Below are positions 40,634-59,100 of a stretch of 64,000 nucleotides of DNA, in pieces. How positions within the stretch are numbered: position 1 is the first letter of the stretch; every line of letters begins with the position of its first letter. The notes below the pieces were generated by a model that saw nothing but the letters and a program-made list of their open reading frames with translations, was not told where the DNA came from and made no database searches. The position numbers were made by a program, and so were the translations under genes. Source of the stretch: Deltaproteobacteria bacterium (GTDB taxonomy: Bacteria; Myxococcota_A; Polyangia; Polyangiales; Houyiibacteriaceae); the NCBI GenBank assembly GCA_013151775.1, contig JAADHO010000118.1, positions 988 to 64,987 of the forward strand. Reading direction: 5' to 3'.

Positions 40634-41569
40634 TTGGGGGGTACCCGAGTGGGGGCTCGCAGTCGTTACGAGAGCATCGCCAAGATCGTCTTCGCCTTCA
40701 CGCGTCAGCGCACCTGGGCGCAGGCGAAGCTAGCGCGCCGCGTGGATGTGCAACCTCGTCAGCTTCGAAAGATCCTGCTCGAGCTACAAGACGCGGGCAT
40801 GCCACTCGAACGCGAGCGCGACCGCCCCCACGTCTACTGGAGCGTCCCGAAGGGCTGGCTCCCCGGCGGCGTGTCGCTGAGCGGCGAGGAGGTCGCGATG
40901 GCGCTCGGCTTGATGATCCGCCTGCCGCCAAGCGGCGACCGCGAGCGACTGCTGAACGCGCTCGCGCCCTTCGCCAAGCGGCCACCAGCGGACGCCGTGG
41001 AACACCACGGACAGCAAGGCCCCGCCGCGGACGAGCTGTGGCGGCTCGTGCCGCAGGCGATCGCCGATGAGCAAGTGCTGCGCATGCGCTATCGCTCGGC
41101 GCGCGGGGAAGCCAAGGCGAGGAGCGTGTCGCCTCAGCGCATCGACGCCGAGGCGCGCCACCTGATCGCCTGGTGCCACGAAGCGAAGGCGCTCCGGCGC
41201 TTCCACTTCAAGCGCGTGGAGCGCATCGAGGTGGACGGTTGCGACGACGGCTATGTTCGAGTCGAGCGGCGCGTGCTGGACGGCTTCATGGAGCAATCGG
41301 TGGACGGCTTCCACGACGCCAGCGCGGCGCGCGAGCTAGCGTTCCACGTGACCGCCGAGATCGCCGGCTGGGTCGCGGGAGACCTGCCCTACGGCCTGCA
41401 CCACGAGCCCGCGGACGACGGCGGCCTACGCGTCCACGGCTACGTCGCCGGTCTGGCCCAGGTCGCGCGCTACGTCGTGGGCCTGGGCGCCGAGGCCGAG
41501 GCCGAGACGCCCGAACTACGAGACGCCGTCGCCGAGCTGGCGCGGGGCGCGCTGGAGAACGCGGAGTGA
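40634..41569 (+). CDS. WYL-domain transcriptional regulator (N-terminal wHTH + WYL)
   Basis: WYL-like core VLRMRYRSARGEAKARSVSPQRIDAEARHLIAWCHEAKALRRFHFKRVERIEV. Start uncertain (TTG 40634 or GTG 40649). Confidence 0.8.
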   Translation: MGGTRVGARSRYESIAKIVFAFTRQRTWAQAKLARRVDVQPRQLRKILLELQDAGMPLERERDRPHVYWSVPKGWLPGGVSLSGEEVAMALGLMIRLPPSGDRERLLNALAPFAKRPPADAVEHHGQQGPAADELWRLVPQAIADEQVLRMRYRSARGEAKARSVSPQRIDAEARHLIAWCHEAKALRRFHFKRVERIEVDGCDDGYVRVERRVLDGFMEQSVDGFHDASAARELAFHVTAEIAGWVAGDLPYGLHHEPADDGGLRVHGYVAGLAQVARYVVGLGAEAEAETPELRDAVAELARGALENAE

Positions 41570-42541: not shown

Positions 42542-42919
42542 TCATCCCAGTGGAAGACATCGTGTGCGCGCGGAGGCCCCGTCCAGCGTGACCACCGCGC
42601 CATCACGCAACGCAAGCGCGACCTGGGGCAGGAAGCGCTCGAGGGTGGCAGCCTGATCGACCGGCTTCATTGTGGAGCTTCCGCGCAAGACGACCACCGA
42701 GGGATTGCCTGCAGCCCGCAGCGCAAGCAGTTGCGCGAAATCCGAGTCCCGGGTGACGACGACGCGGCCGTCAAGCAGGGCGCGCTCCAATATCTCCTCG
42801 TCCCGAGCCGCGCCCATATGCAACGACTGGACATGAACCACGTCGTAGCCAGCTTCCGTGAGCACAGCGACAACCTGCGGCGACAACGCGTTGTCGATGA
42901 GCAGCCGCAGAGAACTCAC
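42542..42919 (-). CDS. PIN-like DUF5615-family putative toxin
   Basis: GTG start at 42919 overlaps the DUF433 stop (GTGA). VSSLRLLIDNALSPQVVAVLTEAGYDVVHVQSLHMGAARDEEILERALLDGRVVVTRDSDF is the typical family layout. Confidence 0.75.
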   Translation of the reverse strand: MSSLRLLIDNALSPQVVAVLTEAGYDVVHVQSLHMGAARDEEILERALLDGRVVVTRDSDFAQLLALRAAGNPSVVVLRGSSTMKPVDQAATLERFLPQVALALRDGAVVTLDGASARTRCLPLG

Positions 42920-43140
42920 TGCGCTGCGTCGTTCTCCCGCGCTGTTCTCGCAAGCTCCGCGGCGTACAGCAGGGCTTCGCGGATGTCGTCTTGCTCGAGA
43001 TCCGGATACGCGTCGAGGATCTCGGACGTCGTCATCTGCGCGACCAGACCCACGACGAGGCTGACAGGGATGCGCAGCCCACGGATACAAGGCTGCCCCT
43101 CGAGCTGGTCCGGTCGAATGGTGATGCGTGGGAAGGGCAT
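42916..43140 (-). CDS. DUF433-family putative antitoxin
   Basis: 74 aa. ITIRPDQLEGQPCIRGLRIPVSLVVGLVAQMTTSEILDAYPDLEQDDIREALLYA is the DUF433 core. Confidence 0.8.
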   Translation of the reverse strand: MPFPRITIRPDQLEGQPCIRGLRIPVSLVVGLVAQMTTSEILDAYPDLEQDDIREALLYAAELARTARENDAAQ

Positions 43141-43199
43141 AGCGCGATCGCAGTGTAGCGCGATTCGGCGGAAGCTGCGGGCGGATGAGGGAGCGCATG

Positions 43200-43420
43200 C
43201 GAGAGCATCGTGACAGCTGGGCGCTGATCAGACAAGCATTTTCTGTGTTAGCTAGAGTTGCACCTTGTAGAAAATGTATATTCTGCTAGGATGGGATTGT
43301 GAGTGAAATCCACCACAGGCTGAAAACGCCGAAAGGCTGGTCTTGCACCAAAATGTGCGTGCGAGGTCTGAGTACGTCTTCGTGGTACGCTCATGCTGTC
43401 CCGAGGCCGGGAGCCAGGTC
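43200..43420. promoter_or_regulatory. AT-rich tract between the divergent TA operon and cas3, a likely promoter region
   Basis: Only markedly AT-rich non-coding stretch in the island (43241-43300 is 23/60 G+C by count). I could not pin convincing -35/-10 boxes. Confidence 0.35.
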
Positions 43421-43452
43421 ATTCCCGCGACTTTCGCGGGCCCCTTTGAAGC
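43418..43452 (+). repeat. solitary degenerate CRISPR repeat (psi-repeat)
   Basis: GTCATTCCCGCGACTTTCGCGGGCCCCTTTGAAGC versus the array repeat CTCTCTCCCGCGAATCATCGCGGGCCCCATTGAAGC. Both 7-nt stem arms are identical, 11/12 of the 3' tail is identical, and the loop is 3 nt rather than 4. Confidence 0.85.
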
Positions 43453-43560
43453 GCTCGCGTTGCTCCTTGCACGCAGAGGCGAGAAAAAGTCTGCCTCGCC
43501 GGCCTCGGGACGCTTCAAGTCCCAGCCCTCCGGACAGGAAGCACTCTGGGCGTGGGCGAG

Positions 43561-43680
43561 ATCCTGGATCCACGTTCAGTGAGCGCCAACGGGTGCACCG
43601 AATGGCGCAGCGGGGCTGCGTATGAAGAAGACAATGTCAGAAGCGAGCGAGACGTGCGTCTTGGTCGTGGACGCTGGAGC
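43561..43680 (+). repeat. cas3-leader-like element, copy 3 (ends 10 nt before the cas3 ATG)
   Basis: Aligns with copies 1 and 2. More diverged in its central part. Confidence 0.8.
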
Positions 43681-43690
43681 CAGTTGAACG

Positions 43691-46123
43691 ATGAGCACCT
43701 ACGAGCAGTTCTTTTCCGACATCACAACCTTCGCGCCCTTTCCCTATCAGGCGCGCCTGGGCACCGAGGCGTGGCCGAGCTTGTTGGACGTGCCGACTGG
43801 CCTGGGCAAGACGGCCGCCGTCGTGATCGCCTGGCTGCACAAGCGGCTGACCGATGATGGCGACACAGGGCGGCGGCTCGTCTACTGCCTGCCCACCCGG
43901 GTCTTGGTGGACCAGACGCGTTTGGCAGCCGAGGCATGGGTCAAGGCCGCCGCGCCCCGCTTTCGCGACGCCGGCCGCGCCGCGCCTAGCGTCCACGTCC
44001 TGCGAGGCGGAGAGCTCGACGAGCGCTGGCAGGGCGAGCCCGAGTCGGAAGCCATCCTGATCGGCACACAGGATATGCTGCTCTCGCGCGCCTTGAATCG
44101 AGGCTTCGCCATGTCGCCCTCGCGCTGGCCGATGCACTTCGCCTGGCTGAACAACGACGCCTTCTGGGTCTTCGACGAGATCCAGCTGATGGGTGTGGGC
44201 GTCGAGACGTCCGCCCAACTCCAGGCCTTCCGCGACGGATGGGGCGTCGAGGGCCCGAGCCGCTCGCTGTGGATGAGCGCCACCGTCGGCGCCGGACAGC
44301 TCGCGACCGTCGACCACCCGGCGCCCTCGGGTGGCTTCCCTCGGCACACGTTGCTGGCAGAAGACCGGGCGTTGGATCGAGTGCTCGAACGCACCCAGGC
44401 CAAGAAGCGAGTCATCCTGTCGGAGTTGGCCCTCGGCTCTAGCAAGAAGGCAGACGAGGCGGCTCACCTCGAGGCGTTGGCGAATGAGGTGGCCACGGCA
44501 CACGAGGAGCGGGGCGGCCTGACGCTCGTGATCCTCAACTCCGTGAAGCGTGCTCGCGGATTGCGCGCGCTGCTGAGCAAGAAGGTCGTGGAGCTCGGGC
44601 TGATCCACTCGCGATTCCGCGCGCCGGACCGACGCGTACAAGAGGCCATGCTGGCGGGCGAGGCTGATCGCGTCGTGGTGGCGACGCAGGCGATCGAGGC
44701 GGGTGTCGACGTCTCTGCGCGCACGCTCTTCACGGAGCTCGCCCCCTGGCCCTCGATGATCCAGCGCATCGGGCGCTGCAATCGCTACGGGAAGGAAGCA
44801 CAGGCAGAAGTGCGGGTGGTCGATCTTCGGGTCGAAGACGATGACGCTCTGGCCCTGCCCTACGATCCGGCCGCCATGCTGCAGGCGCGTGGTCTGCTGC
44901 ACGATCTTGGCGACGACGCCTCACCCGCACGCCTGTCCGCGATCAGCTTCTCGCCGCCCGTGGTGGTGCGTCCGGTCGTTCGACGGCGCGATCTGCTGCA
45001 GCTCTTCGACACCACGCCGGATCTCTTCGGCAACGACGTCGACGTCTCCCGCTTCATTCGCGACGATCAAGACACCGACGTACAGGTCTTCTGGAGGTCC
45101 TTCGAGGGCACGCCCGCTGCCGAGCTGCCCGGGCCTGGTCACGGTGAACTCTGCGCAGTGTCCATCGGCGCGGCACGTGATCTGGTCGAGAAGAAACTGA
45201 AGAGCAAGCGCGCCAAGGCCAAAGGCGAGGCGACCAAGCGGCTCTGGGCCTACGCCTGGGACCGCACCCGCGGGGAGTGGGCGCGCGTCGAGCGGCCGCA
45301 TCCGGGTCAGGTCTTGCTGCTCCACGTCAGCGCGGGCGGGTACGATCCGGAGCTCGGCTTTACGGGAGAACTCCGTGGCGACGTGCCCGCTGTCCAGCCC
45401 GCGGAGCCCAGCCCGCGAAGCGATGCCGACCAGCTGGCCGGTGACGCCCGCAGCCAGGGCGAGCGCTGGGTGGAGCTGAGCGCACACCTCGAACACGTCG
45501 AGGCCGAGGCGCGCGAGCTGAGCGCCCGGCTGGATGTATCGGCCGCCGACGTGCTCGGGCGCGCAGGACGCTGGCATGACGTCGGCAAGGCGCACCCGGA
45601 GTGGCAACGCAAGATCGTCCAGCCGGCGGTGGACGCGGGGCAGCCTCCGCCCACCCCAGACGGCGTGTGGGCCAAGTCGCCGCACCGGCTGCGGCCGCCG
45701 AGCGGCGCGCGCAAGTACCTGCGCCACGAGCTGGCCTCAGCGCTGGCGTGGTTGACGCACGCGCCCGACGAGGAGCCGGACCGCGCGCTCATCGCCTACC
45801 TGCTCGCGGCGCACCACGGCAAGGTGCGCATGGCCATCCGATCGGGGCCTCAAGAAGAGCCCGCTCCGGACGGGCGCCTCTTCGCGCACGGGATCTGGGA
45901 CGGTGACGAGCTGCCGAGCGTGAGGCAGCCCGCGGGCGCGAGCGTGCCGCCGACGACTCTGCGGCTGCATCTGATGCAGCTTGGCGCCGGCAGCTGGCGA
46001 GAGCTGAGCATAGGCCTGCTCGAGCAGCACGGCCCCTTCCGCCTGGCGTGGCTCGAGAGCGCGCTGAGAGCCGCGGACTGGCGCGCGAGTCGCAAAGAGA
46101 CCGAAGGAGCGTACGATGAATGA
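43691..46123 (+). CDS. cas3: type I-G Cas3 (helicase with a C-terminal HD nuclease domain)
   Basis: Motif I DVPTGLGKTAAV, motif II VFDEIQLMG, C-terminal HD region GRWHDVGKAHPEWQ...LAAHHGKVR. The helicase-then-HD order is the I-G/I-U hallmark. Confidence 0.92.
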   Translation: MSTYEQFFSDITTFAPFPYQARLGTEAWPSLLDVPTGLGKTAAVVIAWLHKRLTDDGDTGRRLVYCLPTRVLVDQTRLAAEAWVKAAAPRFRDAGRAAPSVHVLRGGELDERWQGEPESEAILIGTQDMLLSRALNRGFAMSPSRWPMHFAWLNNDAFWVFDEIQLMGVGVETSAQLQAFRDGWGVEGPSRSLWMSATVGAGQLATVDHPAPSGGFPRHTLLAEDRALDRVLERTQAKKRVILSELALGSSKKADEAAHLEALANEVATAHEERGGLTLVILNSVKRARGLRALLSKKVVELGLIHSRFRAPDRRVQEAMLAGEADRVVVATQAIEAGVDVSARTLFTELAPWPSMIQRIGRCNRYGKEAQAEVRVVDLRVEDDDALALPYDPAAMLQARGLLHDLGDDASPARLSAISFSPPVVVRPVVRRRDLLQLFDTTPDLFGNDVDVSRFIRDDQDTDVQVFWRSFEGTPAAELPGPGHGELCAVSIGAARDLVEKKLKSKRAKAKGEATKRLWAYAWDRTRGEWARVERPHPGQVLLLHVSAGGYDPELGFTGELRGDVPAVQPAEPSPRSDADQLAGDARSQGERWVELSAHLEHVEAEARELSARLDVSAADVLGRAGRWHDVGKAHPEWQRKIVQPAVDAGQPPPTPDGVWAKSPHRLRPPSGARKYLRHELASALAWLTHAPDEEPDRALIAYLLAAHHGKVRMAIRSGPQEEPAPDGRLFAHGIWDGDELPSVRQPAGASVPPTTLRLHLMQLGAGSWRELSIGLLEQHGPFRLAWLESALRAADWRASRKETEGAYDE

Positions 46124-48257
46124 CAGCGTCCACAGGCACGAGCTCGGCGGATGCTCACCCACACCCCTCGCGGGCTACCTCAAGTCCCTGGGCATCCTGC
46201 GCCTGGTGAGCGAGCAGGCGGATGCCACGGCCCGAGGCGCCTGGCGTCACGAGTGCTTCACCCTCTGGACCCGCCTGGATCGCGAAGCGCTCGAGCGCTT
46301 CTTTCTGGAGCAGTACGCGCCGACGCCGGTGGTCACACCATGGAATGGTGGCAGTGGTTTTTACCCGAAGGACAACAAGGACGGCATCGACTTCATCGAG
46401 TCGTCCACGTCCAGTCGCTTCGCCGGTTACCGCGACACCATCCGTCAGGCTCGCAAGCTGCTGTCGGAGCTGAATCTCGCCGAGAAGCCCGACGCGAAGC
46501 ACGAGAAACCGCGCCTGCTCGCCGCGTGCCGAGGAAGCTTCAGCGACACAGCCCTCGACTGGCTCGACGCGGCCTATGTGTTGGGCGACACCGACCCCAA
46601 ATATCCTCCGGTGCTGGGCACCGGCGGGAACGAGGGGCGACTGGAATTCGCTAACAACCTGATGCAGCGGCTGTCCGAGCTGCTCGATGCCGAGGGTGCA
46701 CCTCAGCCACCCGCACGAGCATGGCTCTGGGCCACGCTCTGGGGCCAAGCAGTGGCGGGTCTGCGCGCAGTGTCAGTGGGTCAATTTCAACCCGGGGCGG
46801 CCGGTGGCCCCAACGCCGCCGCCGGTTACGAAGGCAAGGCGAACGTCAACCCGTGGGACTTCGTCTTGATGATCGAGGGCGCGCTGATGCTCGGCGGCAG
46901 CGCCGTGCGCCGTTATGATGTCAGCGGCTCACGAGGCCGCGCGGCCTTCCCGTTCGCGGTCGGAGCCACGGCGTCGGGCTACGCCAGCGCCGCGAGCGCG
47001 GACGAGGGGGACTCACGAGGAGAGCTCTGGTTGCCGCTGTGGAGCGAGCCCACGAGCGCGCAGGAGCTGCGCGCCCTGATGGGCGAGGGTCGCGCGGATA
47101 TCCAAGGCCGGCGCGCGCGCACAGGCCTCGACTTCGCCCAGGCCGTGTCGTCGCTCGGCGTGGACCGCGGGATCGAGTCTTTCGAACGCTATGGCTTTCA
47201 TGTGCGCAACGGGCTGTCCTACTTCGCCACCACGCTGGGTCGCTATCAGGTCGGGACCTCCCAACATGTCGGCCTGCTGCGCGACCTCGACACCTGGCTG
47301 GATCGCAACCGGGGCAAGTGTGCAGGCGACACGGCGCCCGCCTCCGTCCGCCGCGCGCTGCGCCGCTTCGAGACGGCGGCCATGCTGATGGCGTCACGCG
47401 ACGACGTCACCAGCGTCGGTGAAGCGCTGCTGAGCCTGGGCTCCCTCGAGGCCGCCCTGGGATCGAGCCTGACCTTCTGCAGCAAGAGCTTCGTGCCGCC
47501 GCTGCCGCCCCTGCGTCGCGCATGGATCGAGGCGACGCGATCGGATTCGCCCGAGATGCGCCTCGCCGACGCCCTCGCCAGCGTGGCAGACCGCTACGGC
47601 GGCCTCGATCTGCCCATCCGGTCGCAGGTCGAGCCCGTAGAACGACGGGGCCGTTTCTGGACCTTCGCCAAGACGACGCATGAGGTGCTCTGGCATCAGG
47701 GCTCGCTCGTCCGCTCGATGAACAGCGTCTTCGAGCGCCGCGTGCTGCTCGCCAGCACATCCGAAGCGCGCTTCGCCGATCGAGGCCGCATCTTCAGCGG
47801 TCTCGGCGACATCGACGCCTTCATCCTGGGCCGAACGGATGACAAGCTGCTCGAGCGCTGGTTCCGAGCTTGCCTGCTGCTCGAGCGCCCAGAGGCGCGC
47901 GCCTTCCCCCCAGCGCGCACTCAGCGGCCGGTACCCTACGCCGGCTACGGCCTTCCCAAGCTCACCTTCGCGCCCGGTCCGGTCGGCGACCAGCACATCC
48001 CCATCACGCCGCGCATCCTCCGCCTGATGCGCACCGGGCGTGCCGTCGACGCCATGCAGGCCACCGCGCGCCGCCTTCGCGCGAGCGGGCTCGCGCCCAC
48101 CACGCATGAAGTCCACGCCGATCGTGAGCGCATGCGGCGCTGCGCCGCGGCGCTGCTCTTTCCCATCTCCCACGCAGACACCGAACGCCTCGCCGGCCGC
48201 TACCTCAGCGCCGGCACCAACACGCCCCTGTCCCATCAACCCACGGAAAGCCCATGA
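46116..48257 (+). CDS. csx17: type I-G large subunit Csx17 (Cas8g/Cas8u)
   Basis: 713 aa. N-terminus LGGCSPTPLAGYLKSLGILRLVSEQAD is typical of Csx17. Sits between cas3 and csb1 and overlaps cas3 by 8 nt. Confidence 0.85.
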   Translation: MNDSVHRHELGGCSPTPLAGYLKSLGILRLVSEQADATARGAWRHECFTLWTRLDREALERFFLEQYAPTPVVTPWNGGSGFYPKDNKDGIDFIESSTSSRFAGYRDTIRQARKLLSELNLAEKPDAKHEKPRLLAACRGSFSDTALDWLDAAYVLGDTDPKYPPVLGTGGNEGRLEFANNLMQRLSELLDAEGAPQPPARAWLWATLWGQAVAGLRAVSVGQFQPGAAGGPNAAAGYEGKANVNPWDFVLMIEGALMLGGSAVRRYDVSGSRGRAAFPFAVGATASGYASAASADEGDSRGELWLPLWSEPTSAQELRALMGEGRADIQGRRARTGLDFAQAVSSLGVDRGIESFERYGFHVRNGLSYFATTLGRYQVGTSQHVGLLRDLDTWLDRNRGKCAGDTAPASVRRALRRFETAAMLMASRDDVTSVGEALLSLGSLEAALGSSLTFCSKSFVPPLPPLRRAWIEATRSDSPEMRLADALASVADRYGGLDLPIRSQVEPVERRGRFWTFAKTTHEVLWHQGSLVRSMNSVFERRVLLASTSEARFADRGRIFSGLGDIDAFILGRTDDKLLERWFRACLLLERPEARAFPPARTQRPVPYAGYGLPKLTFAPGPVGDQHIPITPRILRLMRTGRAVDAMQATARRLRASGLAPTTHEVHADRERMRRCAAALLFPISHADTERLAGRYLSAGTNTPLSHQPTESP

Positions 48258-49240
48258 ACCTCGAAGCATTGAACGAATCCCCCCGCCTCCTCCTCCAGGC
48301 CGAGCTGAAGCCCGTGCAGGGCACCCGCTTTCAGCCCACCGGCTTCCCCGACCTCGGCGCGGCCGAGTACAGCGTGACCGACGGGCGCAACATGCGAAAC
48401 ATGCTGCTGCTCGAGTCCGCCCAGAGCATGGCCAACCGCCTCGAGGCCGCCTGCTGGGACGAAGGCCAGGGTGATCTGGTACCCGCGCTTCAGGGCCTGC
48501 CCTACGTCAAGTCCACGCTGCCCGATGGGACGGTGACCAGCTCGATCTTGGAGGCCCATCGTCTCAACTCTCCCTACCTCTGCGACGCGACGGGCTACGA
48601 GGTGATCAAGGACGCCGTAGGCTTCATCAAGGACGCGCCCTTCGACCGCCGCAAGCTGGCGACAGCATTGCTGCGCTTCGACCCGAACAGCCTGCTGCAC
48701 GGCATCTTCCTCGAGAAGATCGGAGGCGTCGTGCGCCTGCCGCGCGCGCTCTCAGCGTTCGTCGAGGCCGAAGACGTCCACGTCGCGGCCGCGGGTGGTG
48801 TGAAGTTCGACCGCGTGCAGCCGACCTCGGCGGGCACCAACACCAAGTACGGCTCAGCCAACGAGGGCTACGGAAATGTGCCGTATCATCGCGACGAGTA
48901 CACGGCGAAGAGGATCGTCGCCTACTTCAATCTCGACCTCGCGCTGCTGCGGGGCCTAGGACTGAAGGACGCCGCCCTGCGGCTGATGACCACGCTGGCG
49001 CTCTACAAGATCCGGCGCTTCCTCGAGGCGGGCCTGCGCCTGCGCACGGCCTGCGATCTCGACGTGGTGGGCGAGGTCGAGGTGCAGCGGCCCGACGGCT
49101 TCGCCCTGCCCACGACGGAAGCCCTGGAGCAGGCTCTGCCGGCGCTGATCTCCGAGTGCGCACCTCTCTTCAACGATCCACGCGTGCTCGAACTCACCTA
49201 CGACAAGGACAAGAAGTCCGCCCGAACCAAGAAGGACTGA
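48254..49240 (+). CDS. csb1: type I-G Cas7 (Csb1, GSU0053 family)
   Basis: LQAELKPVQGTRFQPTGFPDLGAAEY signature. ATGA overlap with csx17. Confidence 0.88.
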   Translation: MNLEALNESPRLLLQAELKPVQGTRFQPTGFPDLGAAEYSVTDGRNMRNMLLLESAQSMANRLEAACWDEGQGDLVPALQGLPYVKSTLPDGTVTSSILEAHRLNSPYLCDATGYEVIKDAVGFIKDAPFDRRKLATALLRFDPNSLLHGIFLEKIGGVVRLPRALSAFVEAEDVHVAAAGGVKFDRVQPTSAGTNTKYGSANEGYGNVPYHRDEYTAKRIVAYFNLDLALLRGLGLKDAALRLMTTLALYKIRRFLEAGLRLRTACDLDVVGEVEVQRPDGFALPTTEALEQALPALISECAPLFNDPRVLELTYDKDKKSARTKKD

Positions 49241-49243
49241 CCC

Positions 49244-50827
49244 ATGGTCACGCTCGAGATCCGGTTCCCCGGCGGGCGCTATCACGCCACGCCGTGGGAT
49301 CACCACGTCAACGAGGGAGTGGTCGAGTGGCCCCCCTCTCCCCTACGCATCGCGCGCGCTCTGCTGGCCACCTGGCACCTCAAGGCGCGCGACGAGCTCT
49401 CCGAATCGGCCGTGCGAAGCTTGTGCGAGTCCTTGGCGTCGAGTCTACCCATCTACGAGCTGCCGGAAGATGTCACCCCGGCACACACGCGCCACTACAT
49501 GCCCCTCGGAGGAACGAAGACCGGCAAGATCTTCGACGCCTTCCTTCGGATCGACGCCTCGCGTATCTTGGTGATCACTTGGCCAAACGTGGAGCTCGAC
49601 GACCCCGAGCTCGACGCGCTGCGCGTGCTGGCGCAGCGCCTGAGCTACCTCGGCCGTGCCGAGAGCTGGGTCGATGCGCGCGTGGCCGAGCGCCCCGTGG
49701 AGCGGCTCAACGCGGCGCCTGTCGAGCACCTCGACACAGGAGAGATCGTGCCCGTGCTCTGCGCCTACACCCCCGCAGAGTACGAGCGTTGGCGTGAGGC
49801 CGAGGTCGACCGGCAGCTCAGCCTCGAACTCGAGCAGCAGCGTCGCAAGGACATCGCGAAGGGAAAGCCTCCCGAGAAGACCAGACTCTCCAAGCGAAAG
49901 CGTGAGGGCATCAAGGCGAGCGTTCCCGCAGATCTCTTCGCGGCCTTGCACGTCGACACCACCCTGCTGCGCAAGCAGGGCTGGAGCGCGCCGCCGGGCA
50001 CACGCTGGATTAGCTACCGGCGACCCACACTGGCGCAGCCGCGCACTCCCAAACACGAGGCGAACGCGCCGAGCCCGTGCGCCGCGCGCTTCGCCGTGAG
50101 CGGGGCCGTACTGCCGCGGCTCACCGAGGCGTTGCGCTTTGGCGAGGCGGTGCGTGGCGCGCTTGGCCAGAGCCGCCTGCGCGTCTTTCACGGCAAGGAC
50201 GACGAAGGCCGACCTCTACTCGGTCATGAGCACGCCTTCTTCCTGCCCGAGTCCCACGGCCACGAGGGTCGCATCACGCACCTCTCCCTGTACGCTCGCG
50301 AGGGCCTCGATGCGAACGCGCAGGCGGCCATCGACAAGCTGGTCTCGGGCGAGATCAGGCTCGAGAAGGACGCCACCCACCCCATGAAGCTGACGCTGAT
50401 CGGCCTTGGCGAAAGGGACGAGCTCGGCAACACGGGCGCTCCACTCTTCGCCGAGGCGCGGGAGTGGTGCTCCCTGACGCCCTTCATCCCCACGCGACAC
50501 CTCAAGCGCAAGCGCAGCGGCGCGCCCAAGTTCGATGCTCACGGCCGAGCCATCGGCTCACCGGAGCACGATGTGCTGCGCCTCTTCGAACTGGCGGGCC
50601 TGCCCGCTGTGGAGCACATCGAGCCCACCGAGGGCGTGAAGCTCGGCGGGCGCATCGTGCGCTGGCTCGACTTCTACCGCTGGCGAGCGCGACATGGGCG
50701 AGGCGCGCGCGGTGACTCGCGTGGCTTCGGCTTCCGGGTCGTCTTCGCGCAGGCTGTGCGGGGCCCCATCGCCGTCGGCTTTGGTGCTCACTTTGGCTTG
50801 GGAATCTTCGGGCCCGAGTCGTCGTGA
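49244..50827 (+). CDS. csb2: type I-G Cas5-Cas6 fusion (Csb2, GSU0054 family)
   Basis: N-terminus LEIRFPGGRYHATPWDHHVNEGVVEWPPSPLRIARALLATW is typical of Csb2. 527 aa. Confidence 0.88.
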   Translation: MVTLEIRFPGGRYHATPWDHHVNEGVVEWPPSPLRIARALLATWHLKARDELSESAVRSLCESLASSLPIYELPEDVTPAHTRHYMPLGGTKTGKIFDAFLRIDASRILVITWPNVELDDPELDALRVLAQRLSYLGRAESWVDARVAERPVERLNAAPVEHLDTGEIVPVLCAYTPAEYERWREAEVDRQLSLELEQQRRKDIAKGKPPEKTRLSKRKREGIKASVPADLFAALHVDTTLLRKQGWSAPPGTRWISYRRPTLAQPRTPKHEANAPSPCAARFAVSGAVLPRLTEALRFGEAVRGALGQSRLRVFHGKDDEGRPLLGHEHAFFLPESHGHEGRITHLSLYAREGLDANAQAAIDKLVSGEIRLEKDATHPMKLTLIGLGERDELGNTGAPLFAEAREWCSLTPFIPTRHLKRKRSGAPKFDAHGRAIGSPEHDVLRLFELAGLPAVEHIEPTEGVKLGGRIVRWLDFYRWRARHGRGARGDSRGFGFRVVFAQAVRGPIAVGFGAHFGLGIFGPESS

Positions 50828-52656
50828 GCGGCGACGACCAGGCCGCGCCCGACCCCGAGCCCGACTCGCCAGCTCCTCCGCGCGCGAAGCACCTGCGCCC
50901 CGACCGCCATCCCCTCGCACTTCCGAGCGCCGCGCCCGACGCGGTGCCGGCGCGCATGGTCAACGAGGTGCTCTACTGCGAGCGCCTCATGTACCTCGAG
51001 TGGGCGCAGGGAGAGTTCGCCGACAACCACTACACCGTTCACGGGCGGGTCGTGCACAAGCGGGCCGACAAGCCCGGCAAACCGATTCGTAAGCCCGGCG
51101 CCAAGAAGGCCGCGAGCAAGACGAGTCCAGAGCAGGACGAGGCGTCCGAGGCCGAGCAAGAGGACCTGCCCTACACCGCCCGCAGCGTCTGGCTGACGTC
51201 CACCCGCTTGGGCCTGACGGCGCGCATCGACATCGTCGAGGCCGATCGCGAGGGCGTCGTGCCCATCGAGTACAAGCGCGGCAAGGCGCCGGACTTGCCA
51301 GACGGCGCGTGGCTGCCGGAGCGGGCACAGCTCATGGCGCAAGCGCTGCTGCTGCGGGACCACGGCTACACGGTGGAGCGCGCGGAGATCTACTTCGCCG
51401 GGGATCGGAAACGCGTGCCCATCGAGCTGTCAGCCGAGCTCGAGGCCGAGACGCGCGGCGCCATCGCGCGAGCGAAAGAGCTGACGGAGGCAGGCGCGAT
51501 CCCCGAACCGCTGCTCGACAGCCCGAAATGCAGCGGCTGCTCGCTGGTGGGCATCTGTCTGCCCGACGAGGTCAACTTGCTCTCCATCGGCGAATCGGAG
51601 CCGAGCGCGAGCGAGGCCACCGAGCCGCAGCTGCGCCGCCTGCACCCCGCACGTGACGAGCGGCTGCCCGTCTACGTGCAGGCGCACGCGGCGCGCATCG
51701 GGCTGAGCGGCGACTGCCTGGTGATCAAGACGCCCGAGGGAAAGCAAGAGGCACGGCTCCCGAACACCTCGCAGCTCGCCGTCTTCGGCAACGTGCAGCT
51801 GACGACGCCGGCGATGCGTGCGCTGCTCGACCGTGAGATCCCCCTCACCTTCTTCTCCTACGGCGGCTGGTTCCTTGGCCGGCTCGTGGGCCACGGCAGC
51901 AAGAACGTGGAGCTGCGGGTGGCACAACACCGGGGCGCCGCGGACCGCAGCTTCTGCGTGAAGCTCGCGCGCGGGCTCGTAGCGTCGAAGATCCTGAACT
52001 GCCGCACCCTCTATCGGCGCAACGCGGAGTCACCCGACGCGACGACGCTGGGCGAGCTGGAGAGGCTCGCTCAGGCTGCACGCGAGGCGGTGTCTCTGGA
52101 GTCGCTCTTGGGCTACGAGGGCACGGCGGCGCGGCTCTACTTCTCGGTGTTCAATCAGATGCTGAAGGGCCAGGCGGCTGTGGGCGCCTTCGACATGCAC
52201 GGCCGCAACCGCCGCCCTCCGCGGGATCCGATCAATGCGATGCTATCCTTCGCCTACAGCTTGCTCGCCAAGGAGCTGGCGCTGATGTGCGCGAACGTGG
52301 GGCTCGATCCGATGTTGGGGTTCTATCATCAGCTCCGCTATGGGAGGCCGGCCCTGGCGCTGGACTTGATGGAGGAGTTTCGGCCGATCGTGGCGGATTC
52401 GGTAGTCGTAGCGGCGCTGAACAACGGGGTGCTGACGGAATCTGATTTCGTGCGCAGCCATGTGGGCGTGGCGATGCGTCGCCCAGGGCGCAAGCGCTTC
52501 ATCGCGGCGTATGAGCGCCGGATGGATCAGCTGGTGACGCACCCGGTGTTCGGCTACCGCGTGAGCTACCGGCGCGTGTTCGAGATCCAGGCGCGCCTGT
52601 TGGGCCGCGTGCTGCTGGGCGAACTCGAGGAGTACCCGGAGTTCCGGACGCGATGA
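50824..52656 (+). CDS. cas4-cas1: Cas4-Cas1 fusion
   Basis: Cas4 part: MVNEVLYCERLMYLEW and Cys cluster CSGCSLVGIC. Cas1 part: INAMLSFAYSLLAKE, GLDPMLGFYHQLRYGRPALALDLMEEFRP. GTG start overlaps the csb2 stop. Confidence 0.92.
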   Translation: MSGDDQAAPDPEPDSPAPPRAKHLRPDRHPLALPSAAPDAVPARMVNEVLYCERLMYLEWAQGEFADNHYTVHGRVVHKRADKPGKPIRKPGAKKAASKTSPEQDEASEAEQEDLPYTARSVWLTSTRLGLTARIDIVEADREGVVPIEYKRGKAPDLPDGAWLPERAQLMAQALLLRDHGYTVERAEIYFAGDRKRVPIELSAELEAETRGAIARAKELTEAGAIPEPLLDSPKCSGCSLVGICLPDEVNLLSIGESEPSASEATEPQLRRLHPARDERLPVYVQAHAARIGLSGDCLVIKTPEGKQEARLPNTSQLAVFGNVQLTTPAMRALLDREIPLTFFSYGGWFLGRLVGHGSKNVELRVAQHRGAADRSFCVKLARGLVASKILNCRTLYRRNAESPDATTLGELERLAQAAREAVSLESLLGYEGTAARLYFSVFNQMLKGQAAVGAFDMHGRNRRPPRDPINAMLSFAYSLLAKELALMCANVGLDPMLGFYHQLRYGRPALALDLMEEFRPIVADSVVVAALNNGVLTESDFVRSHVGVAMRRPGRKRFIAAYERRMDQLVTHPVFGYRVSYRRVFEIQARLLGRVLLGELEEYPEFRTR

Positions 52657-52946
52657 GCCGCCAAGCCTACATCGTGAGCTACGACGTGTGTGACCCGAAG
52701 CGGCTGCGCAAGGTGTTCCGGGTGCTCCGCGGCTACGGGGACCACCTGCAGCTCTCGGTGTTTCGGTGTGAGTTAGACAAACGCGAACGCGTGGAGATGG
52801 TGGAACGACTGACCGGCGCGATCCATCATGGCGAGGATCAGGTCTTGGTCATCGACCTGGGTCCGGCGGATGGGCGCGGGAAGGATTGCTTCGAAGCGCT
52901 GGGCCGGCCCTATACTCATCCGGAGCGCCATGCCATCGTGGTGTGA
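52653..52946 (+). CDS. cas2: Cas2
   Basis: 97 aa. YIVSYDVCDPKRLRKVFRVLRGYGDHLQLSVFRCEL. ATGA overlap with cas4-cas1. Confidence 0.92.
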   Translation: MSRQAYIVSYDVCDPKRLRKVFRVLRGYGDHLQLSVFRCELDKRERVEMVERLTGAIHHGEDQVLVIDLGPADGRGKDCFEALGRPYTHPERHAIVV

Positions 52947-53160: not shown

Positions 53161-56100
53161 CTCTCTCCCGCGAATCATCGCGGGCCCCATTGAAGCGTCG
53201 TATCCGATGAAGTGATACTCGCTGCCCTGGTGCGCTCTCTCCCGCGAATCATCGCGGGCCCCATTGAAGCGGATGGTCCAGAAAGCCATCGTCGATCACG
53301 AACCACGGCATCTCTCTCCCGCGAATCATCGCGGGCCCCATTGAAGCAAGCGATTGCTCGATCTGGCGATGGACCAGATCAACCTCTCTCCCGCGAATCA
53401 TCGCGGGCCCCATTGAAGCAGACCGGATGCCACAAGGCGCTCGAGGTGCCCTTGATCGCAGCTCTCTCCCGCGAATCATCGCGGGCCCCATTGAAGCAGA
53501 CTCCTCGACCAAGGCAAGTTGATCCGCCATGGAACTCTCTCCCGCGAATCATCGCGGGCCCCATTGAAGCATGGATGGGTGGTACTACCAGCGCGAAGAG
53601 GCAGTGATATCTCTCTCCCGCGAATCATCGCGGGCCCCATTGAAGCGTTCCCATCATCGATATCCGCGCTGGCGACGCCTCGCTCTCTCCCGCGAATCAT
53701 CGCGGGCCCCATTGAAGCGCATTCAGCAGTGTGATACTATCTGCTGATGCTGGTCTCTCTCCCGCGAATCATCGCGGGCCCCATTGAAGCTACTTCATCA
53801 CGTTGACAGAACTGCCGGTGGTTCCCTCTCTCCCGCGAATCATCGCGGGCCCCATTGAAGCTACCTGAGCCATGAAAAACAAATCATCGTCGACGTCTCA
53901 CACTCTCTCCCGCGAATCATCGCGGGCCCCATTGAAGCTGGGCGTGCTTCTACCTCGATTCCGCGCTGGGCAACTCTCTCCCGCGAATCATCGCGGGCCC
54001 CATTGAAGCACCTACGAGAGCGAGTGGGGCGAGCTGCCCGACGAGATCTCTCTCCCGCGAATCATCGCGGGCCCCATTGAAGCAGCATCTGCGCTGCCTT
54101 GGTGAGGCGGTCTTCTTGCGCCTCTCTCCCGCGAATCATCGCGGGCCCCATTGAAGCTTGAGCCACGACGCCAGCGAGTCCTTGAGCGCTGCGCCGCTCT
54201 CTCCCGCGAATCATCGCGGGCCCCATTGAAGCCGCAGCTCTTCGGGCTCGTAGCTCGACCTGACCCCCATCTCTCTCCCGCGAATCATCGCGGGCCCCAT
54301 TGAAGCTTGCGCGATTCGGGTGTGCTGTGACCCGGCGCGCGCGCCTCTCTCCCGCGAATCATCGCGGGCCCCATTGAAGCTCCGCGTCCACGAAGAGCAC
54401 CCAGCTCTGTAGGCCGCTCTCTCCCGCGAATCATCGCGGGCCCCATTGAAGCGCTATTCGCACGCGCTCGACCCGCCAGGTCAACCACATCTCTCTCCCG
54501 CGAATCATCGCGGGCCCCATTGAAGCGCCGTGCAGTACGACGTACAGCGCTCGCTCAACGTGCTCTCTCCCGCGAATCATCGCGGGCCCCATTGAAGCCT
54601 ATGGTGGTGAGAGGCGAGCGCATCGCTCGCCCGATAGCTCTCTCCCGCGAATCATCGCGGGCCCCATTGAAGCCCCCACGACGCGACCCAGCTACTCGCT
54701 CGAGCCGACTCTCTCCCGCGAATCATCGCGGGCCCCATTGAAGCGTCAAGTCCAGCGCGCGGGCAAACTCCTCTCCATAGACTCTCTCCCGCGAATCATC
54801 GCGGGCCCCATTGAAGCTAGAGCGCTGCGAGCGCCTTCGACACGGCAACCACCTCTCTCCCGCGAATCATCGCGGGCCCCATTGAAGCCGTTCCGGTCTT
54901 GCACTCGTCGAGAATCAGATTCCCGCTCTCTCCCGCGAATCATCGCGGGCCCCATTGAAGCTCGCGAGTGACGACCTCAGCCTGGTGCGCATCACGGCTC
55001 TCTCCCGCGAATCATCGCGGGCCCCATTGAAGCCGGGCTCGACTGAGTGCATCGCGGGCGGACTGGGTCCTCTCTCCCGCGAATCATCGCGGGCCCCATT
55101 GAAGCCTCCTTGTAGAAAGATGGGGACCCCCGCAACAGCAACCTCTCTCCCGCGAATCATCGCGGGCCCCATTGAAGCTCGGACTGGAACACCCTCAGCG
55201 CCTTGACCGTGCGCGCTCTCTCCCGCGAATCATCGCGGGCCCCATTGAAGCGAGCAGCGCAAGGCTCTCCTCGGGCAGCTGCACCACCTCTCTCCCGCGA
55301 ATCATCGCGGGCCCCATTGAAGCACCTCCTTGCGCCAATGTCTGCCGGGCGTCTTGGCGCGCTCTCTCCCGCGAATCATCGCGGGCCCCATTGAAGCGAG
55401 TGCGGCGGCGACCGTTGCTACGCGCCGCCCACCGACTCTCTCCCGCGAATCATCGCGGGCCCCATTGAAGCTCGACAATGAACGTCCCGGAATACCTGCG
55501 ATCAGTGTCTCTCTCCCGCGAATCATCGCGGGCCCCATTGAAGCCCGCACCCGGAGGGCCAGGGGCAGTGAAGGCCAGAGTCCTCTCTCCCGCGAATCAT
55601 CGCGGGCCCCATTGAAGCACTGACGTATGGAACAAGATGCGCGGGTGGCAGGGTGCTCTCTCCCGCGAATCATCGCGGGCCCCATTGAAGCAGCAACACT
55701 GTGACTGCGTTGGATGGGACCGCTATCGCCTCTCTCCCGCGAATCATCGCGGGCCCCATTGAAGCTCGCCAGTAGGAAGTCTCGTCGAGCTTGAGGATCT
55801 GGCTCTCTCCCGCGAATCATCGCGGGCCCCATTGAAGCCCGCTCGTCGTGCGCGACTCGGGCGTCTGATGGAGGGCTCTCTCCCGCGAATCATCGCGGGC
55901 CCCATTGAAGCCACACGTACGAGCAGCCCGCGCCAGCCCTTCTTTTGAAACTCTCTCCCGCGAATCATCGCGGGCCCCATTGAAGCGCCAGGAACATCAT
56001 CGCCGCCGCCTTGCCCTCCATCAGACCTCTCTCCCGCGAATCATCGCGGGCCCCATTGAAGCTCGGGATTGCTTGGGCGGTCATGAATCGCCAGCAAGCC

Positions 56101-59100
56101 TCTCTCCCGCGAATCATCGCGGGCCCCATTGAAGCACGGTTCCGGCCGCGTCCGTGACGGTCGACCACGAGCTCTCTCCCGCGAATCATCGCGGGCCCCA
56201 TTGAAGCATGTAGGGGCTGTTGCGGAGGAAGACCTGCAGGACGCTCTCTCCCGCGAATCATCGCGGGCCCCATTGAAGCCTCTTCCTCCTTCTCTTCCAT
56301 GAGAGTATCTACACGCCTCTCTCCCGCGAATCATCGCGGGCCCCATTGAAGCTTGTGATAGGGGAACATTCTCTCGATCCTCTTCCGAACTCTCTCCCGC
56401 GAATCATCGCGGGCCCCATTGAAGCCTCTTGTAGTAGATATCCAGAGCCCGCTTTTCCATGCCTCTCTCCCGCGAATCATCGCGGGCCCCATTGAAGCTG
56501 GGTGACGATTCCAAGGTGATCGGTCGCCAGGAACTCTCTCCCGCGAATCATCGCGGGCCCCATTGAAGCACTCCGAGGTGACGGTGCTGCGCGGAGCCGA
56601 GGGCCGCCTCTCTCCCGCGAATCATCGCGGGCCCCATTGAAGCCACGGCTGCGCGTGACGTCGCGTGCGCGCTGTGCTCCTCTCTCCCGCGAATCATCGC
56701 GGGCCCCATTGAAGCCCGCACAGTATCTCCCACGTGCCGCTGCCCAGCCGCTCTCTCCCGCGAATCATCGCGGGCCCCATTGAAGCGCCTCGAATCGACG
56801 TCAAGCGAGCCATTGTTGGATTCTCTCTCCCGCGAATCATCGCGGGCCCCATTGAAGCTCGGCGGTCACGAGCGAATTCGCGTCTGCTCCCGGCGACCTC
56901 TCTCCCGCGAATCATCGCGGGCCCCATTGAAGCGTCAAGTCGCGCATGAGCAAGGCCATGGCCGGAGGCCTCTCTCCCGCGAATCATCGCGGGCCCCATT
57001 GAAGCCCGATCAGTAGCGTCCGGAGCGTCGATCGAACGCGGGCCTCTCTCCCGCGAATCATCGCGGGCCCCATTGAAGCAACGATCGGTCCCGCGTTCCC
57101 GAGGTCCACGTTGATCTCTCTCCCGCGAATCATCGCGGGCCCCATTGAAGCGACATGACGGCAGTGAGCGCGACGAGCCCTCACGCCTCTCTCTCCCGCG
57201 AATCATCGCGGGCCCCATTGAAGCTTGCTCGAGGCCACGCCGGACACGGCCACGGAGCTGCTCTCTCCCGCGAATCATCGCGGGCCCCATTGAAGCGGCG
57301 AGTGGAAGATCACCAAGGTCAGCGACTACGGCACTCTCTCCCGCGAATCATCGCGGGCCCCATTGAAGCGAACTGAGGCGACGACTCATCCGCGCGAGTA
57401 GACGTCTCTCTCCCGCGAATCATCGCGGGCCCCATTGAAGCGACGCGCAGATCAACCCGATCATGCTCAGCTACGAGCTCTCTCCCGCGAATCATCGCGG
57501 GCCCCATTGAAGCTGTAGCCACATGCTGCGGACAGACGAGAAGCTACGGCTCTCTCCCGCGAATCATCGCGGGCCCCATTGAAGCCGCCGCCGCGTTTTG
57601 AGGTAGCTGAACTGCGTGACGGTCTCTCTCCCGCGAATCATCGCGGGCCCCATTGAAGCGGCTAGGTCTGGCAGGTCGGCCAGGCGTAGGTACGTGCTCT
57701 CTCCCGCGAATCATCGCGGGCCCCATTGAAGCTACCTGATCTCAATCATCACAGATCGCAAGTGGATCGGCACCTCTCTCCCGCGAATCATCGCGGGCCC
57801 CATTGAAGCGCTCACGCACATCAGATGACCCTGACCTCAGCGGCGCCCTCTCTCCCGCGAATCATCGCGGGCCCCATTGAAGGGTCGGGCTCTTGAGGCT
57901 GCCCTTTGCCGTTTGGTTTCTCTCTCCCGCGAATCATCGCGGGCCCCATTGAAGCAACTGGGACACCGTCGCGATGCTGATATCCGTGATGCCTCTCTCC
58001 CGCGAATCATCGCGGGCCCCATTGAAGCCGCGTGCAAGAGCTGGCAGACGCGTCGCACACGCGCGGATCTCTCTCCCGCGAATCATCGCGGGCCCCATTG
58101 AAGCTCTTCGTGCCCCGGTCGCCCGAGGCCGCGGATCAGCCTCTCTCCCGCGAATCATCGCGGGCCCCATTGAAGCTCGGCTCGCCGCCGCTGCCTCTGA
58201 TGTGATGCTCATGATCTACTCTCTCCCGCGAATCATCGCGGGCCCCATTGAAGCGCCACTGACGCCTACCCACTCGCCTACAACGCCCCCTCTCTCTCCC
58301 GCGAATCATCGCGGGCCCCATTGAAGCGCGTCGTGGCGCCCGGAGAGGTAGCCGATCACCACCTCTCTCCCGCGAATCATCGCGGGCCCCATTGAAGCGG
58401 ACGCTCGATCCGCGTTGGAACGGGTGGCGATCCCCTCTCTCCCGCGAATCATCGCGGGCCCCATTGAAGCACGTACGTCAGATTGCCGGCGCCATGGGTG
58501 TGCACGTCGTCTCTCTCCCGCGAATCATCGCGGGCCCCATTGAAGCGCTGTTAGGGGGCCGGCGACCATCATTGTCGAGGCTGCTCTCTCCCGCGAATCA
58601 TCGCGGGCCCCATTGAAGCCCGTCCACCCCAGCCGGGATATCGATCGTCACCCGAACTCTCTCCCGCGAATCATCGCGGGCCCCATTGAAGCTGCATGAC
58701 CGTGCGCGCGGCCGCAACCATGGCCTCCCTCTCTCCCGCGAATCATCGCGGGCCCCATTGAAGCACGGCGGCCATCAGGTGGCCCCGACGTGCGGACACT
58801 CTCTCTCCCGCGAATCATCGCGGGCCCCATTGAAGCGTCTCCTTCGCCGCGATGAACCGCCGTCGCGCCGCGACTCTCTCCCGCGAATCATCGCGGGCCC
58901 CATTGAAGCGCGATTTCGTAGGACATGAGATTCTCCGGCGGCTACTCTCTCCCGCGAATCATCGCGGGCCCCATTGAAGCGCCCTCTGCCGCGGCTGCCA
59001 CATCGGCTCAGCGCATCTCTCTCCCGCGAATCATCGCGGGCCCCATTGAAGCATCGGCGGCGGGATCTCAACGAGCATCTCTGATCTGCTCTCTCCCGCG

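Follow-up and report, generated by a model that had tools for sequence, protein, structure and literature searches.

Upstream of cas3 in a type I-G CRISPR-Cas locus, we found a single degenerate CRISPR repeat followed by a spacer-like guide that partly matches a PAM-flanked site in the same intergenic region. Judging from these sequence features, the element is probably a one-repeat gene of the CreR type, from which this type I-G system would obtain a crRNA-like regulatory RNA. Pairs of guide and target with the same logic lie upstream of cas3 in other type I-G loci, with different sequences in each. The element in the window, by which we mean the whole 64,000-nt stretch of DNA that was analysed, is unusual in having a single repeat, an intact hairpin in that repeat (psiR1), and a 13-bp long-range helix in the place of the second repeat (psiR2).

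The type I-G locus and its solitary repeat

By gene content the locus is type I-G, with Cas3g, Cas8g1/Csx17, Csb1/Cas7g, Csb2, Cas4-Cas1 and Cas2. The genes and the array are:

42542-43140, minus strand: DUF433/DUF5615 (PIN-like) gene pair, divergent from cas3, which may be co-regulated
43691-46123, plus strand: cas3g (TIGR02621, 748 bits), ATG at 43691, first gene of the operon and the presumed regulated gene
46116-48257, plus strand: cas8g1/csx17 (TIGR04113, 664 bits)
48254-49240, plus strand: csb1/cas7g, by family match
49244-50827, plus strand: csb2, a Cas5-Cas6 fusion (TIGR02165, 178 bits), the predicted processing enzyme
50824-52946, plus strand: cas4-cas1 fusion and cas2, by gene content
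53161-64000, plus strand: CRISPR array of at least 148 repeats, continuing past the window end

The array repeat is 36 nt long (CTCTCTCCCGCGAATCATCGCGGGCCCCATTGAAGC), and its 148 copies run on the plus strand from 53161 to the window end, with spacers of 35-45 nt. Among the array spacers in the window we found no duplicates, and self-matches were only short and at chance level. A Fic-like gene and a WYL-WCX regulator (40634-41569) are also found upstream of cas3. The window is from a MAG labelled Deltaproteobacteria, and the nearest relative of its Cas3 in the protein database is 70% identical, the next 56%. The 70%-identical Cas3 is carried by a 3.4-kb contig (L001) that starts within two repeat-like units 530 nt before cas3. 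The upstream region is missing from that contig.

The solitary repeat and the processing signals predicted in it are:

43418-43452, plus strand: psiR1, degenerate solitary repeat, GTCATT-CCCGCGA-CTT-TCGCGGG-CCCC-TTTGAAGC
43424-43440, plus strand: repeat hairpin with a 7-bp stem and 3-nt loop, present in the MFE fold; predicted signal for binding and cleavage by Csb2
43445-43452, plus strand: predicted 8-nt 5' handle TTTGAAGC, placed by the Csb2 cleavage rule (the array handle is ATTGAAGC)

The repeat is on the same strand as the array. Both 7-nt stem arms are identical to those of the array repeat (7/7 and 7/7), and the tail is 11/12 identical, the sole change being that the handle begins with T in place of A. 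The loop is CTT where the array repeat has ATCA, and 3/6 of the first six bases are identical. At 7/8 identity to the array handle, the handle is repeat-derived, outside the array and inside the cas locus. The stem pattern alone has 0.17 chance occurrences expected per window, and because about 25 specified bases match, a chance origin of psiR1 is excluded. Its last base is 239 nt before the cas3 ATG (43691) and 9.7 kb before the array, and it is placed between the minus-strand DUF433/DUF5615 pair and cas3, bordering the tract with the lowest GC content in the region (0.495 over 43200-43399 versus ~0.67).

A first-pass annotation of this DNA had described a repeat with exact stem arms, 11 of 12 tail bases, and a drifted loop and first 6 nt, about 240 nt before cas3 and about 10 kb from the array, at the edge of an AT-rich tract between a TA module and cas3. 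Our sequence comparison, distance measurements, GC values and gene calls agree with it on all of these points.

In type I-G of Thioalkalivibrio, Csb2 cleaves 4 nt 3' of the 7-bp stem (PMC9638904). As far as can be judged from its sequence, what psiR1 retains is exactly what the handle and Csb2 processing require. The handles TTTGAAGC/TTTGAAGA are also present in psiR1 of three other loci (L056, L065 and L069). An Rfam search of 43100-43750 at E <= 1 returned no family. Two ORFs over the element (43299-43625, plus strand, and 43252-43518, minus strand) were rejected as genes; they belong to no NCBIfam family and look like GC-rich artefacts.

The guide and its target

The sequence that follows psiR1 and the site that it matches are:

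43453-43488, plus strand: psiS, the spacer-like guide, complementary to the target only over 43453-43471
43248-43250, plus strand: PAM TTA (TTN is the type I-G PAM)
43251-43286, plus strand: psiS target (protospacer), of which 43251-43269 matches the guide; direct-repeat family D1

The first 19 nt past psiR1 (43453-43471) have a match 202 nt upstream, at a TTA-flanked site in the AT-rich tract (43251-43269). The guide reads GCTCGCGTTGCTCCTTGCA and the target GCTAGAGTTGCACCTTGTA, with TTA directly 5' of the target. In the structure of type I-G Cascade, one crRNA base in six is kinked off the target, and the PAM is TTN (PMC9638904). With every sixth base left out, guide and target are identical at 15/16 informative positions. 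Guide positions 4, 6, 12 and 18 are mismatched, and similarity does not extend past position 19. Three of the four mismatches are on positions 6, 12 and 18, which among 19 positions has a hypergeometric p of 0.004. The mismatch at position 4 is inside the seed, and it weighs against the functional reading.

As a control for the target match, we compared 147 real array spacers with the same 53 kb. The best of these 147 reached 13/16 when a TTN PAM was required, and without any PAM rule 1/147 reached 15. The next-best TTN-flanked site of the guide scores 12. The TTN-flanked partial match to the post-repeat sequence that the first-pass annotation had suggested looking for is thus present within the window itself, at 43251-43269.

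The target was exposed by a direct-repeat finder, through the resemblance of the first 14 nt past psiR1 to 43251-43264. A scan for an unbroken seed that skips every sixth base missed it because guide position 4 is mismatched, and returned only chance matches of 8-10 nt.

The motif GCTnGnnTTGCnCC has three copies in this region, at 43251, 43336 and 43453, spaced 85 and 117 nt.

The copy at 43336 is without a PAM, which weighs against an autoregulator. An 8-bp perfect inverted repeat (43237-43244 and 43269-43276) brackets the start of the target in an operator-like manner.

Guide and target pairs in other type I-G loci

We fetched 80 type I-G loci from genomes and 80 from metagenomes; in all, 157 loci in which cas3 comes first were examined. 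A covariance model of type I-G repeats was dropped, as the ungapped alignment was not structure-consistent, and in its place we used a hairpin-plus-tail scan and a handle-anchored scan. The latter covers the 900 nt before cas3 and looks for a repeat handle (at least 6/7 of TTGAAGC) with the next 19 nt matching another site therein. Guide and target pairs were found upstream of cas3 in 18/157 loci (~11%), these being the window and 17 others.

In the genome set together with the window and L001 (82 loci), 12 loci score when TTN is required; in the genome set, six scrambled handles gave 0-3 TTN-flanked matches each. Seven of those loci were also scanned without the PAM rule, and the best match was TTN-flanked in 7/7. 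The guides are specific, in that 6/7 never match another locus as well as their own, and the exception (L056) scores as well in 2.5% of loci. The metagenome set was scanned with no PAM rule, and there L084, L096, L125, L142, L147, L158 and L159 were convincing and all had TTN, L159 being identical to L038. Scrambled handles in that set gave 3 TTN-flanked versus 58 non-TTN matches. Pooling both sets, the PAM is TTN in 18/18 pairs, TTN having been required only in the 12-locus scan of the genome set.

Over the 18 pooled pairs, guide and target match at 92% of positions 1-17 excluding positions 6, 12 and 18, and at 28% of positions 6, 12 and 18 and 25% of positions 20-36. Because neither the sixth positions nor the tail was used to select the pairs, this drop to background is an unbiased sign of Cascade recognition. 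Guides and targets differ between loci yet co-vary, and every guide matches its own locus. Given that the guides have no shared sequence between loci, what is conserved is the pairing. Whether the element is conserved in related type I-G loci had been raised in the first-pass annotation; at the level of the subtype, the same arrangement is present in 17 others, with sequences that differ.

Where the array repeat of the locus is known, psiR1 elsewhere keeps the last 12-14 nt and 6-8/8 handle bases, and its hairpin is usually altered. The second repeat follows a 36-nt guide and keeps the 5' part, the hairpin and CCTCATT, with GAAGC lost. Divergent degeneration of psiR1 and psiR2, as in those loci, has been described for creA genes (PMC8501985).

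In nine loci of the first set, including the window, the element is on the cas3 strand and the target is 50-200 nt upstream of psiR1. In L039, L056 and L069 the element is divergent and the target is between the element and cas3. The genes upstream of the targets include WYL regulators, BrnT, UvrD, an AAA-ATPase, HTH-IrrE and RnfD, and cas3 is the sole neighbour common to all targets.

A possible promoter

The target lies in the only AT-rich tract, 440 nt before cas3. From this position, we infer that the tract may be the promoter of a transcript spanning the element and cas3. That the target site is itself a promoter is suggested by its AT-richness and by analogy with other loci. A consensus promoter scan gave no site in the window, L045 or L065. 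In L056 and L069 it did call a sigma-70-like promoter that faces cas3; this overlies the target in L056 and just precedes it in L069. By eye, we noted the following in the window:

43265-43292, plus strand: weak promoter-like hexamers TTGTAG-16-TAGGAT, pointing to psiR1 and cas3

The hexamers found by eye (in the window, L045 and L065) are AT-rich and fail the rules of the consensus scan. Of the earlier suggestion that the guide directs Cascade to a partly matching promoter, the partly matching target holds; for the promoter, the scan found none in the window.

The missing second repeat and a long-range helix

Local alignment to the array repeat on both strands found no second repeat. When 43487-43528 was aligned to it globally and in register, the best score was at chance, with 0.45 of random genomic windows scoring as well. 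The absence of a convincing second repeat downstream had already been reported in the first pass. In most of the other type I-G examples the psiR2 hairpin is retained. Csb2 of type I-G does not leave the 3' hairpin; it nucleates the complex, whose assembly requires its Cas5-like domain (PMC9638904). Since there is no 3' hairpin here and Csb2 anchors there, the psiS RNA might load poorly, and it is on this point that the functional reading is weakest. The second repeat is, however, a common and not an obligatory CreR feature, and the one-repeat form is functional in Haloarcula hispanica.

Two perfectly complementary arms bracket psiR1 and the guide:

43398-43410, plus strand: helix 5' arm GTCCCGAGGCCGG, 13 bp, 100% complementary (I3), 7 nt upstream of psiR1
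43499-43511, plus strand: helix 3' arm CCGGCCTCGGGAC, at guide positions 47-59, starting about where the psiR2 hairpin would

The 13-bp perfect long-range helix belongs to the MFE fold of the 181-nt leader (z = -4.0 versus shuffles). We also considered the 13-bp inverted repeats as MITE ends and rejected this, the 13-mer having no further copies in the window beyond chance.

Long-range helices with a 3' arm beginning at guide positions 42-47 are also present in the three other loci without a local psiR2 hairpin (L009, L007 and L147), and in loci that retain psiR2 its helix starts at about guide positions 41-44. The 13-bp helix perhaps sets the 3' end of the regulatory RNA. A more speculative idea, to which we give only a small chance, is that type I-G regulatory guides that lost the psiR2 hairpin replace it by a long-range helix, yielding a two-piece crRNA from a single cleavage. 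After the Csb2 cut at psiR1, the leader fragment with its Csb2-bound hairpin would stay annealed 3' of the guide.

Proposed mechanism

In a CreR-type autoregulator, a transcript starting in the AT-rich tract near 43300 would read through psiR1 to cas3. Csb2 would bind the hairpin at 43424-43440 and cut 4 nt beyond it, which would leave the handle TTTGAAGC preceding the guide from 43453, as published type I-G biochemistry suggests. The loaded type I-G Cascade would recognise TTA at 43248-43250 and pair with 43251-43286 over its first ~19 nt; this pairing is visible in the sequence, and the binding is predicted. With complementarity ending past position 19, the R-loop would be incomplete and Cas3 would spare the DNA. 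By analogy with the tested CreR and CreA systems, the bound complex would block transcription, giving less of the regulatory RNA and less of the cas3-cas8g-cas7-csb2-cas4/1-cas2 operon. Repression might be relieved when crRNAs of the very large array compete with the regulatory guide, or when Cascade is inhibited, as by an anti-CRISPR. The CreA/CreR-like reading proposed in the first-pass annotation gains support from the TTA-flanked target in the window and from the same logic in 17 other type I-G loci.

Alternative explanations

The divergent DUF433 gene has its start codon 111 nt from the target, which lies between both transcription units with the operator-like 8-bp inverted repeat (43237-43244 and 43269-43276) at its start, and the main job of the guide could be control of the DUF433/DUF5615 TA operon or of an unrecognised small toxin RNA. 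Extended, the guide would be a CreA-like antitoxin, with an addictive CRISPR locus as the result, instead of or besides cas autoregulation. There are precedents: in H. hispanica two divergent promoters are repressed from one CreA site, and the survey by Shmakov et al. includes mini-arrays that target the promoters of toxin-antitoxin cargo genes (PMC10120712). Among our loci, L045 has a divergent BrnT toxin beside its target, and L065 (Caenispirillum bisanense), in which the spacing from target to psiR1 equals that of the window, has a CreT-like SD-ATG-ATA-ATA mini-ORF and a stem between the two. We nevertheless consider this explanation unlikely. A protein pair that encodes its own antitoxin needs no Cascade for neutralisation, and we found no mini-ORF with SD, start codon and tandem codons on either strand of 43150-43700, CreT genes being diverse. 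Across the loci the upstream neighbours vary and only cas3 is constant, and in several the target is 15-45 nt from psiR1, which is too tight for a toxin gene.

A different question is whether the element is alive at all. It could be a decaying or dead remnant that yields no loadable RNA, left either by an old array upstream or by a two-repeat regulatory mini-array after the loss of its psiR2. The absence of psiR2, the anchoring of Csb2 on the 3' hairpin in type I-G (PMC9638904) and the single seed mismatch at position 4 all fit this, and the two repeat-like units at the equivalent place in L001 fit an ancestral array or mini-array before cas3. However, the stem arms and 7/8 handle bases are intact, and it is the neutral parts (the first six bases and the loop) that drifted. 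The PAM-flanked match persists with its mismatches concentrated on the unread positions 6, 12 and 18 (p = 0.004), and mismatches confined mostly to unread positions point to long purifying selection on the read ones. A plain array relic, which was the other reading in the first-pass annotation, has no reason for a TTN-flanked match 200 nt off, and such a match with mismatches on unread positions is what we found. In addition, a perfect 13-bp helix occupies the psiR2 place, and functional single-repeat creA genes exist elsewhere. Given this selective pattern of conservation, a dead relic is unlikely. Least probable by far is that 43251, 43336 and 43453 are sites for a protein regulator such as the WYL-WCX protein (40634-41569), and the hairpin a structure of the cas3 leader, with no part for Cascade. 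The three GCTnGnnTTGCnCC copies, 85 and 117 nt apart, would suit such a regulator, WYL regulators are found upstream of cas3 here and in L009 and L032, and the 181-nt leader folds better than shuffles (z = -4.0). This leaves unexplained that one copy comes right after the handle and another right after a TTN PAM, as well as the 6-nt periodicity of the mismatches, and the arrangement of handle, guide, PAM and target recurs with unrelated sequences in 17 loci, in most of which no upstream WYL regulator was found.

Significance

If the CreR-type reading is true, RNA-guided autorepression of cas genes extends to type I-G, the least studied type I subtype, and the finding supplies a concrete guide, PAM and target, with 17 further examples. 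Since the type I-G effector contains Cas3 as a stable component and cas3 opens the operon, the loop would sense the whole interference machine including the nuclease. With at least 148 spacers here, Cas output that rises when crRNAs outcompete the regulatory guide is a plausible way to supply the array. A natural estimate of the pairing at which type I-G Cascade would bind without cutting comes from the unread positions (6, 12 and 18) and from where complementarity ends, at about 17-19; this would be useful for repression tools based on type I-G. The handle-anchored search is also a simple finder of such elements in spite of a degenerated hairpin. Overall, the result matches what a specialist would expect, and adds a concrete target, a family of examples and a structural twist.

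Comparison with known systems

Repeat-derived RNAs that send an effector to a partly matching promoter are known in type II, as tracr-L in Streptococcus pyogenes (II-A) and scaRNA in Francisella (II-B), and there transcription is repressed and the DNA is not cut. These differ from the element described here in using class 2 Cas9, tracrRNA-derived guides, and other proteins and PAM, and the likeness is one of function.

Within type I-G, the first-pass annotation was aware of no such description, but Liu et al. list creA-like elements for type I-U, the old name of I-G (bioRxiv 10.1101/2023.03.10.532045, Fig. S7), and Shmakov et al. found repeat-like sequences in 46% of 235 type I-G loci and mini-arrays in 4% (PMC10120712, Table 1), so both had noted such elements before. 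In the literature we found no experimental or detailed account of them for type I-G. The window element fits the definition of Shmakov et al., which is an intergenic repeat-like sequence in a cas locus with a spacer partly complementary to the cas promoter region when every sixth base is disregarded (PMC10120712). In their text, as we read it, no type I-G case is described in detail. Our pairs, at ~11% (18/157), are more frequent than their mini-arrays at 4%, with methods and locus sets that differ.

According to PMC8501985 and the work cited there, the CreTA system of Haloarcula hispanica has a functional creA with a single psiR. It agrees with the window in the single degenerate repeat, a 5' handle without a canonical 3' handle, the partial promoter match and Cascade as the repressor. 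The two differ in that the H. hispanica system is type I-B, archaeal, and paired with the small tRNA-sequestering toxin RNA creT, and no such signature was found in the window at 43150-43700.

CreR genes are degenerate mini-CRISPRs that autorepress cas promoters, and they have been tested in types I-B, I-E and V-A (bioRxiv 10.1101/2023.03.10.532045); taking CreR and CreA together, the tested types are I-B, I-E, I-F and V-A. The window element resembles CreR in its repeat-derived unit with the 5' handle kept, PAM-proximal-only complementarity of the guide, and the cognate PAM, and also in having its target in the intergenic region before the effector operon, adjoining the cas genes with no evident toxin. 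It differs in belonging to type I-G, where the elements were listed bioinformatically only (as I-U), and in having one repeat where CreR has psiR1-psiS-psiR2. The first regulated gene would be cas3 and not cas8. Another difference is the layout: the window element is on the cas3 strand, placed after its target and before cas3, and one repressed transcript would therefore carry both the regulator RNA and cas3. The type of element is already known, and to it the window adds the less common one-repeat form.

Structure of the guide region in loci lacking a psiR2 hairpin

In all four of the loci without a self-contained hairpin in psiR2, the second degenerate repeat of two-repeat forms, a long-range helix encloses the handle and the guide, the spacer-like sequence that follows the degenerate repeat psiR1. 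These are the window and three other type I-G loci (L009, L007 and L147), and the 3' arm of the helix begins at guide positions 42-47 across them.

Arms of the long-range helix
Window: 43398-43410 and 43499-43511
L009: 6368-6381 and 6477-6490
L007: 1524-1533 and 1597-1606
L147: psiR1 3' arm GGCACGG, paired with CCGTGCC after the guide

Other motifs around the window target and psiR1

A third copy of the motif shared by guide and target lies between the target and the repeat at 43336-43349 (GCTGGTCTTGCACC); AAAATGT comes next, just as it does in the target, and the three bases before the copy are AAG, not TTN. We also noted a perfect 8-bp inverted repeat (43237-43244, CATTTTCT, and 43269-43276, AGAAAATG) whose arms flank the PAM together with target positions 1-18. 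The DUF433 antitoxin, or a different regulator, could use this repeat as its operator. The 8-mer GGAGCCAG occurs just before psiR1 (43410-43417) and again shortly before the cas3 start codon (43676-43683), and this second copy overlaps the likely ribosome-binding site; the recurrence may be due to chance.

Genes for WYL-WCX regulators are found upstream of cas3 both in the window and in two further type I-G loci with the regulatory element, and their products may control cas expression as a second layer, based on protein.

WYL-WCX regulator genes
Window: 40634-41569
L009: 4724-5440
L032: 6874-7710

Array and tandem repeats in the window

The array at 53161-64000 is very large, with at least 148 repeats, and continues past the window end. 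All 147 of its spacers are unique, and we found no matches between them and the remainder of the window. Elsewhere, three runs of 18-nt tandem repeats, with 88-93% matches within runs, fall inside 2.3 kb and are probably in-frame coding repeats.

18-nt tandem repeat runs
18919-19112: 10.8 copies
20403-20519: 6.5 copies
21081-21149: 3.8 copies

Repeat units and a CreT-like motif in related loci

The nearest relative, L001 (Cas3 identity 70%), has two repeat-like units at L001:1-80 (...CATTGAAGC, a 36-nt spacer, TTTCCGCGACCTTCGGGTCGCGGCCTCATTGAACC), 530 nt before cas3. They form a mini-array or else the last part of an array located upstream; the contig stops at these units, so the upstream region in which a target would be sought is missing. 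At L084:1650-1800 the same guide, ATTAGCTGGCTCAGAGTCC, occurs in two consecutive units 77 nt apart, each time preceded by an intact handle (ATTGAAGC), and the locus has one TTG-flanked target on the opposite strand. This is a duplicated regulatory unit.

Among 12 loci scanned, only L065 (Caenispirillum bisanense JCM 14346, NZ_BAAAEP010000003.1) has a CreT-like mini-ORF and stem, at L065:9586-9800. Its target-psiR1 interval reads AGGAGGTGGTGG-ATG-ATA-ATA-TTG..., in which a strong ribosome-binding site precedes a start codon and a tandem pair of rare AUA codons; a 13-bp GC stem comes next. We regard this arrangement as a candidate CreTA module, a CRISPR-regulated toxin-antitoxin RNA pair, within a type I-G system; the motif resembles the CreT toxin of Halobacterium hubeiense, which sequesters tRNA-Ile (PMC8501985).
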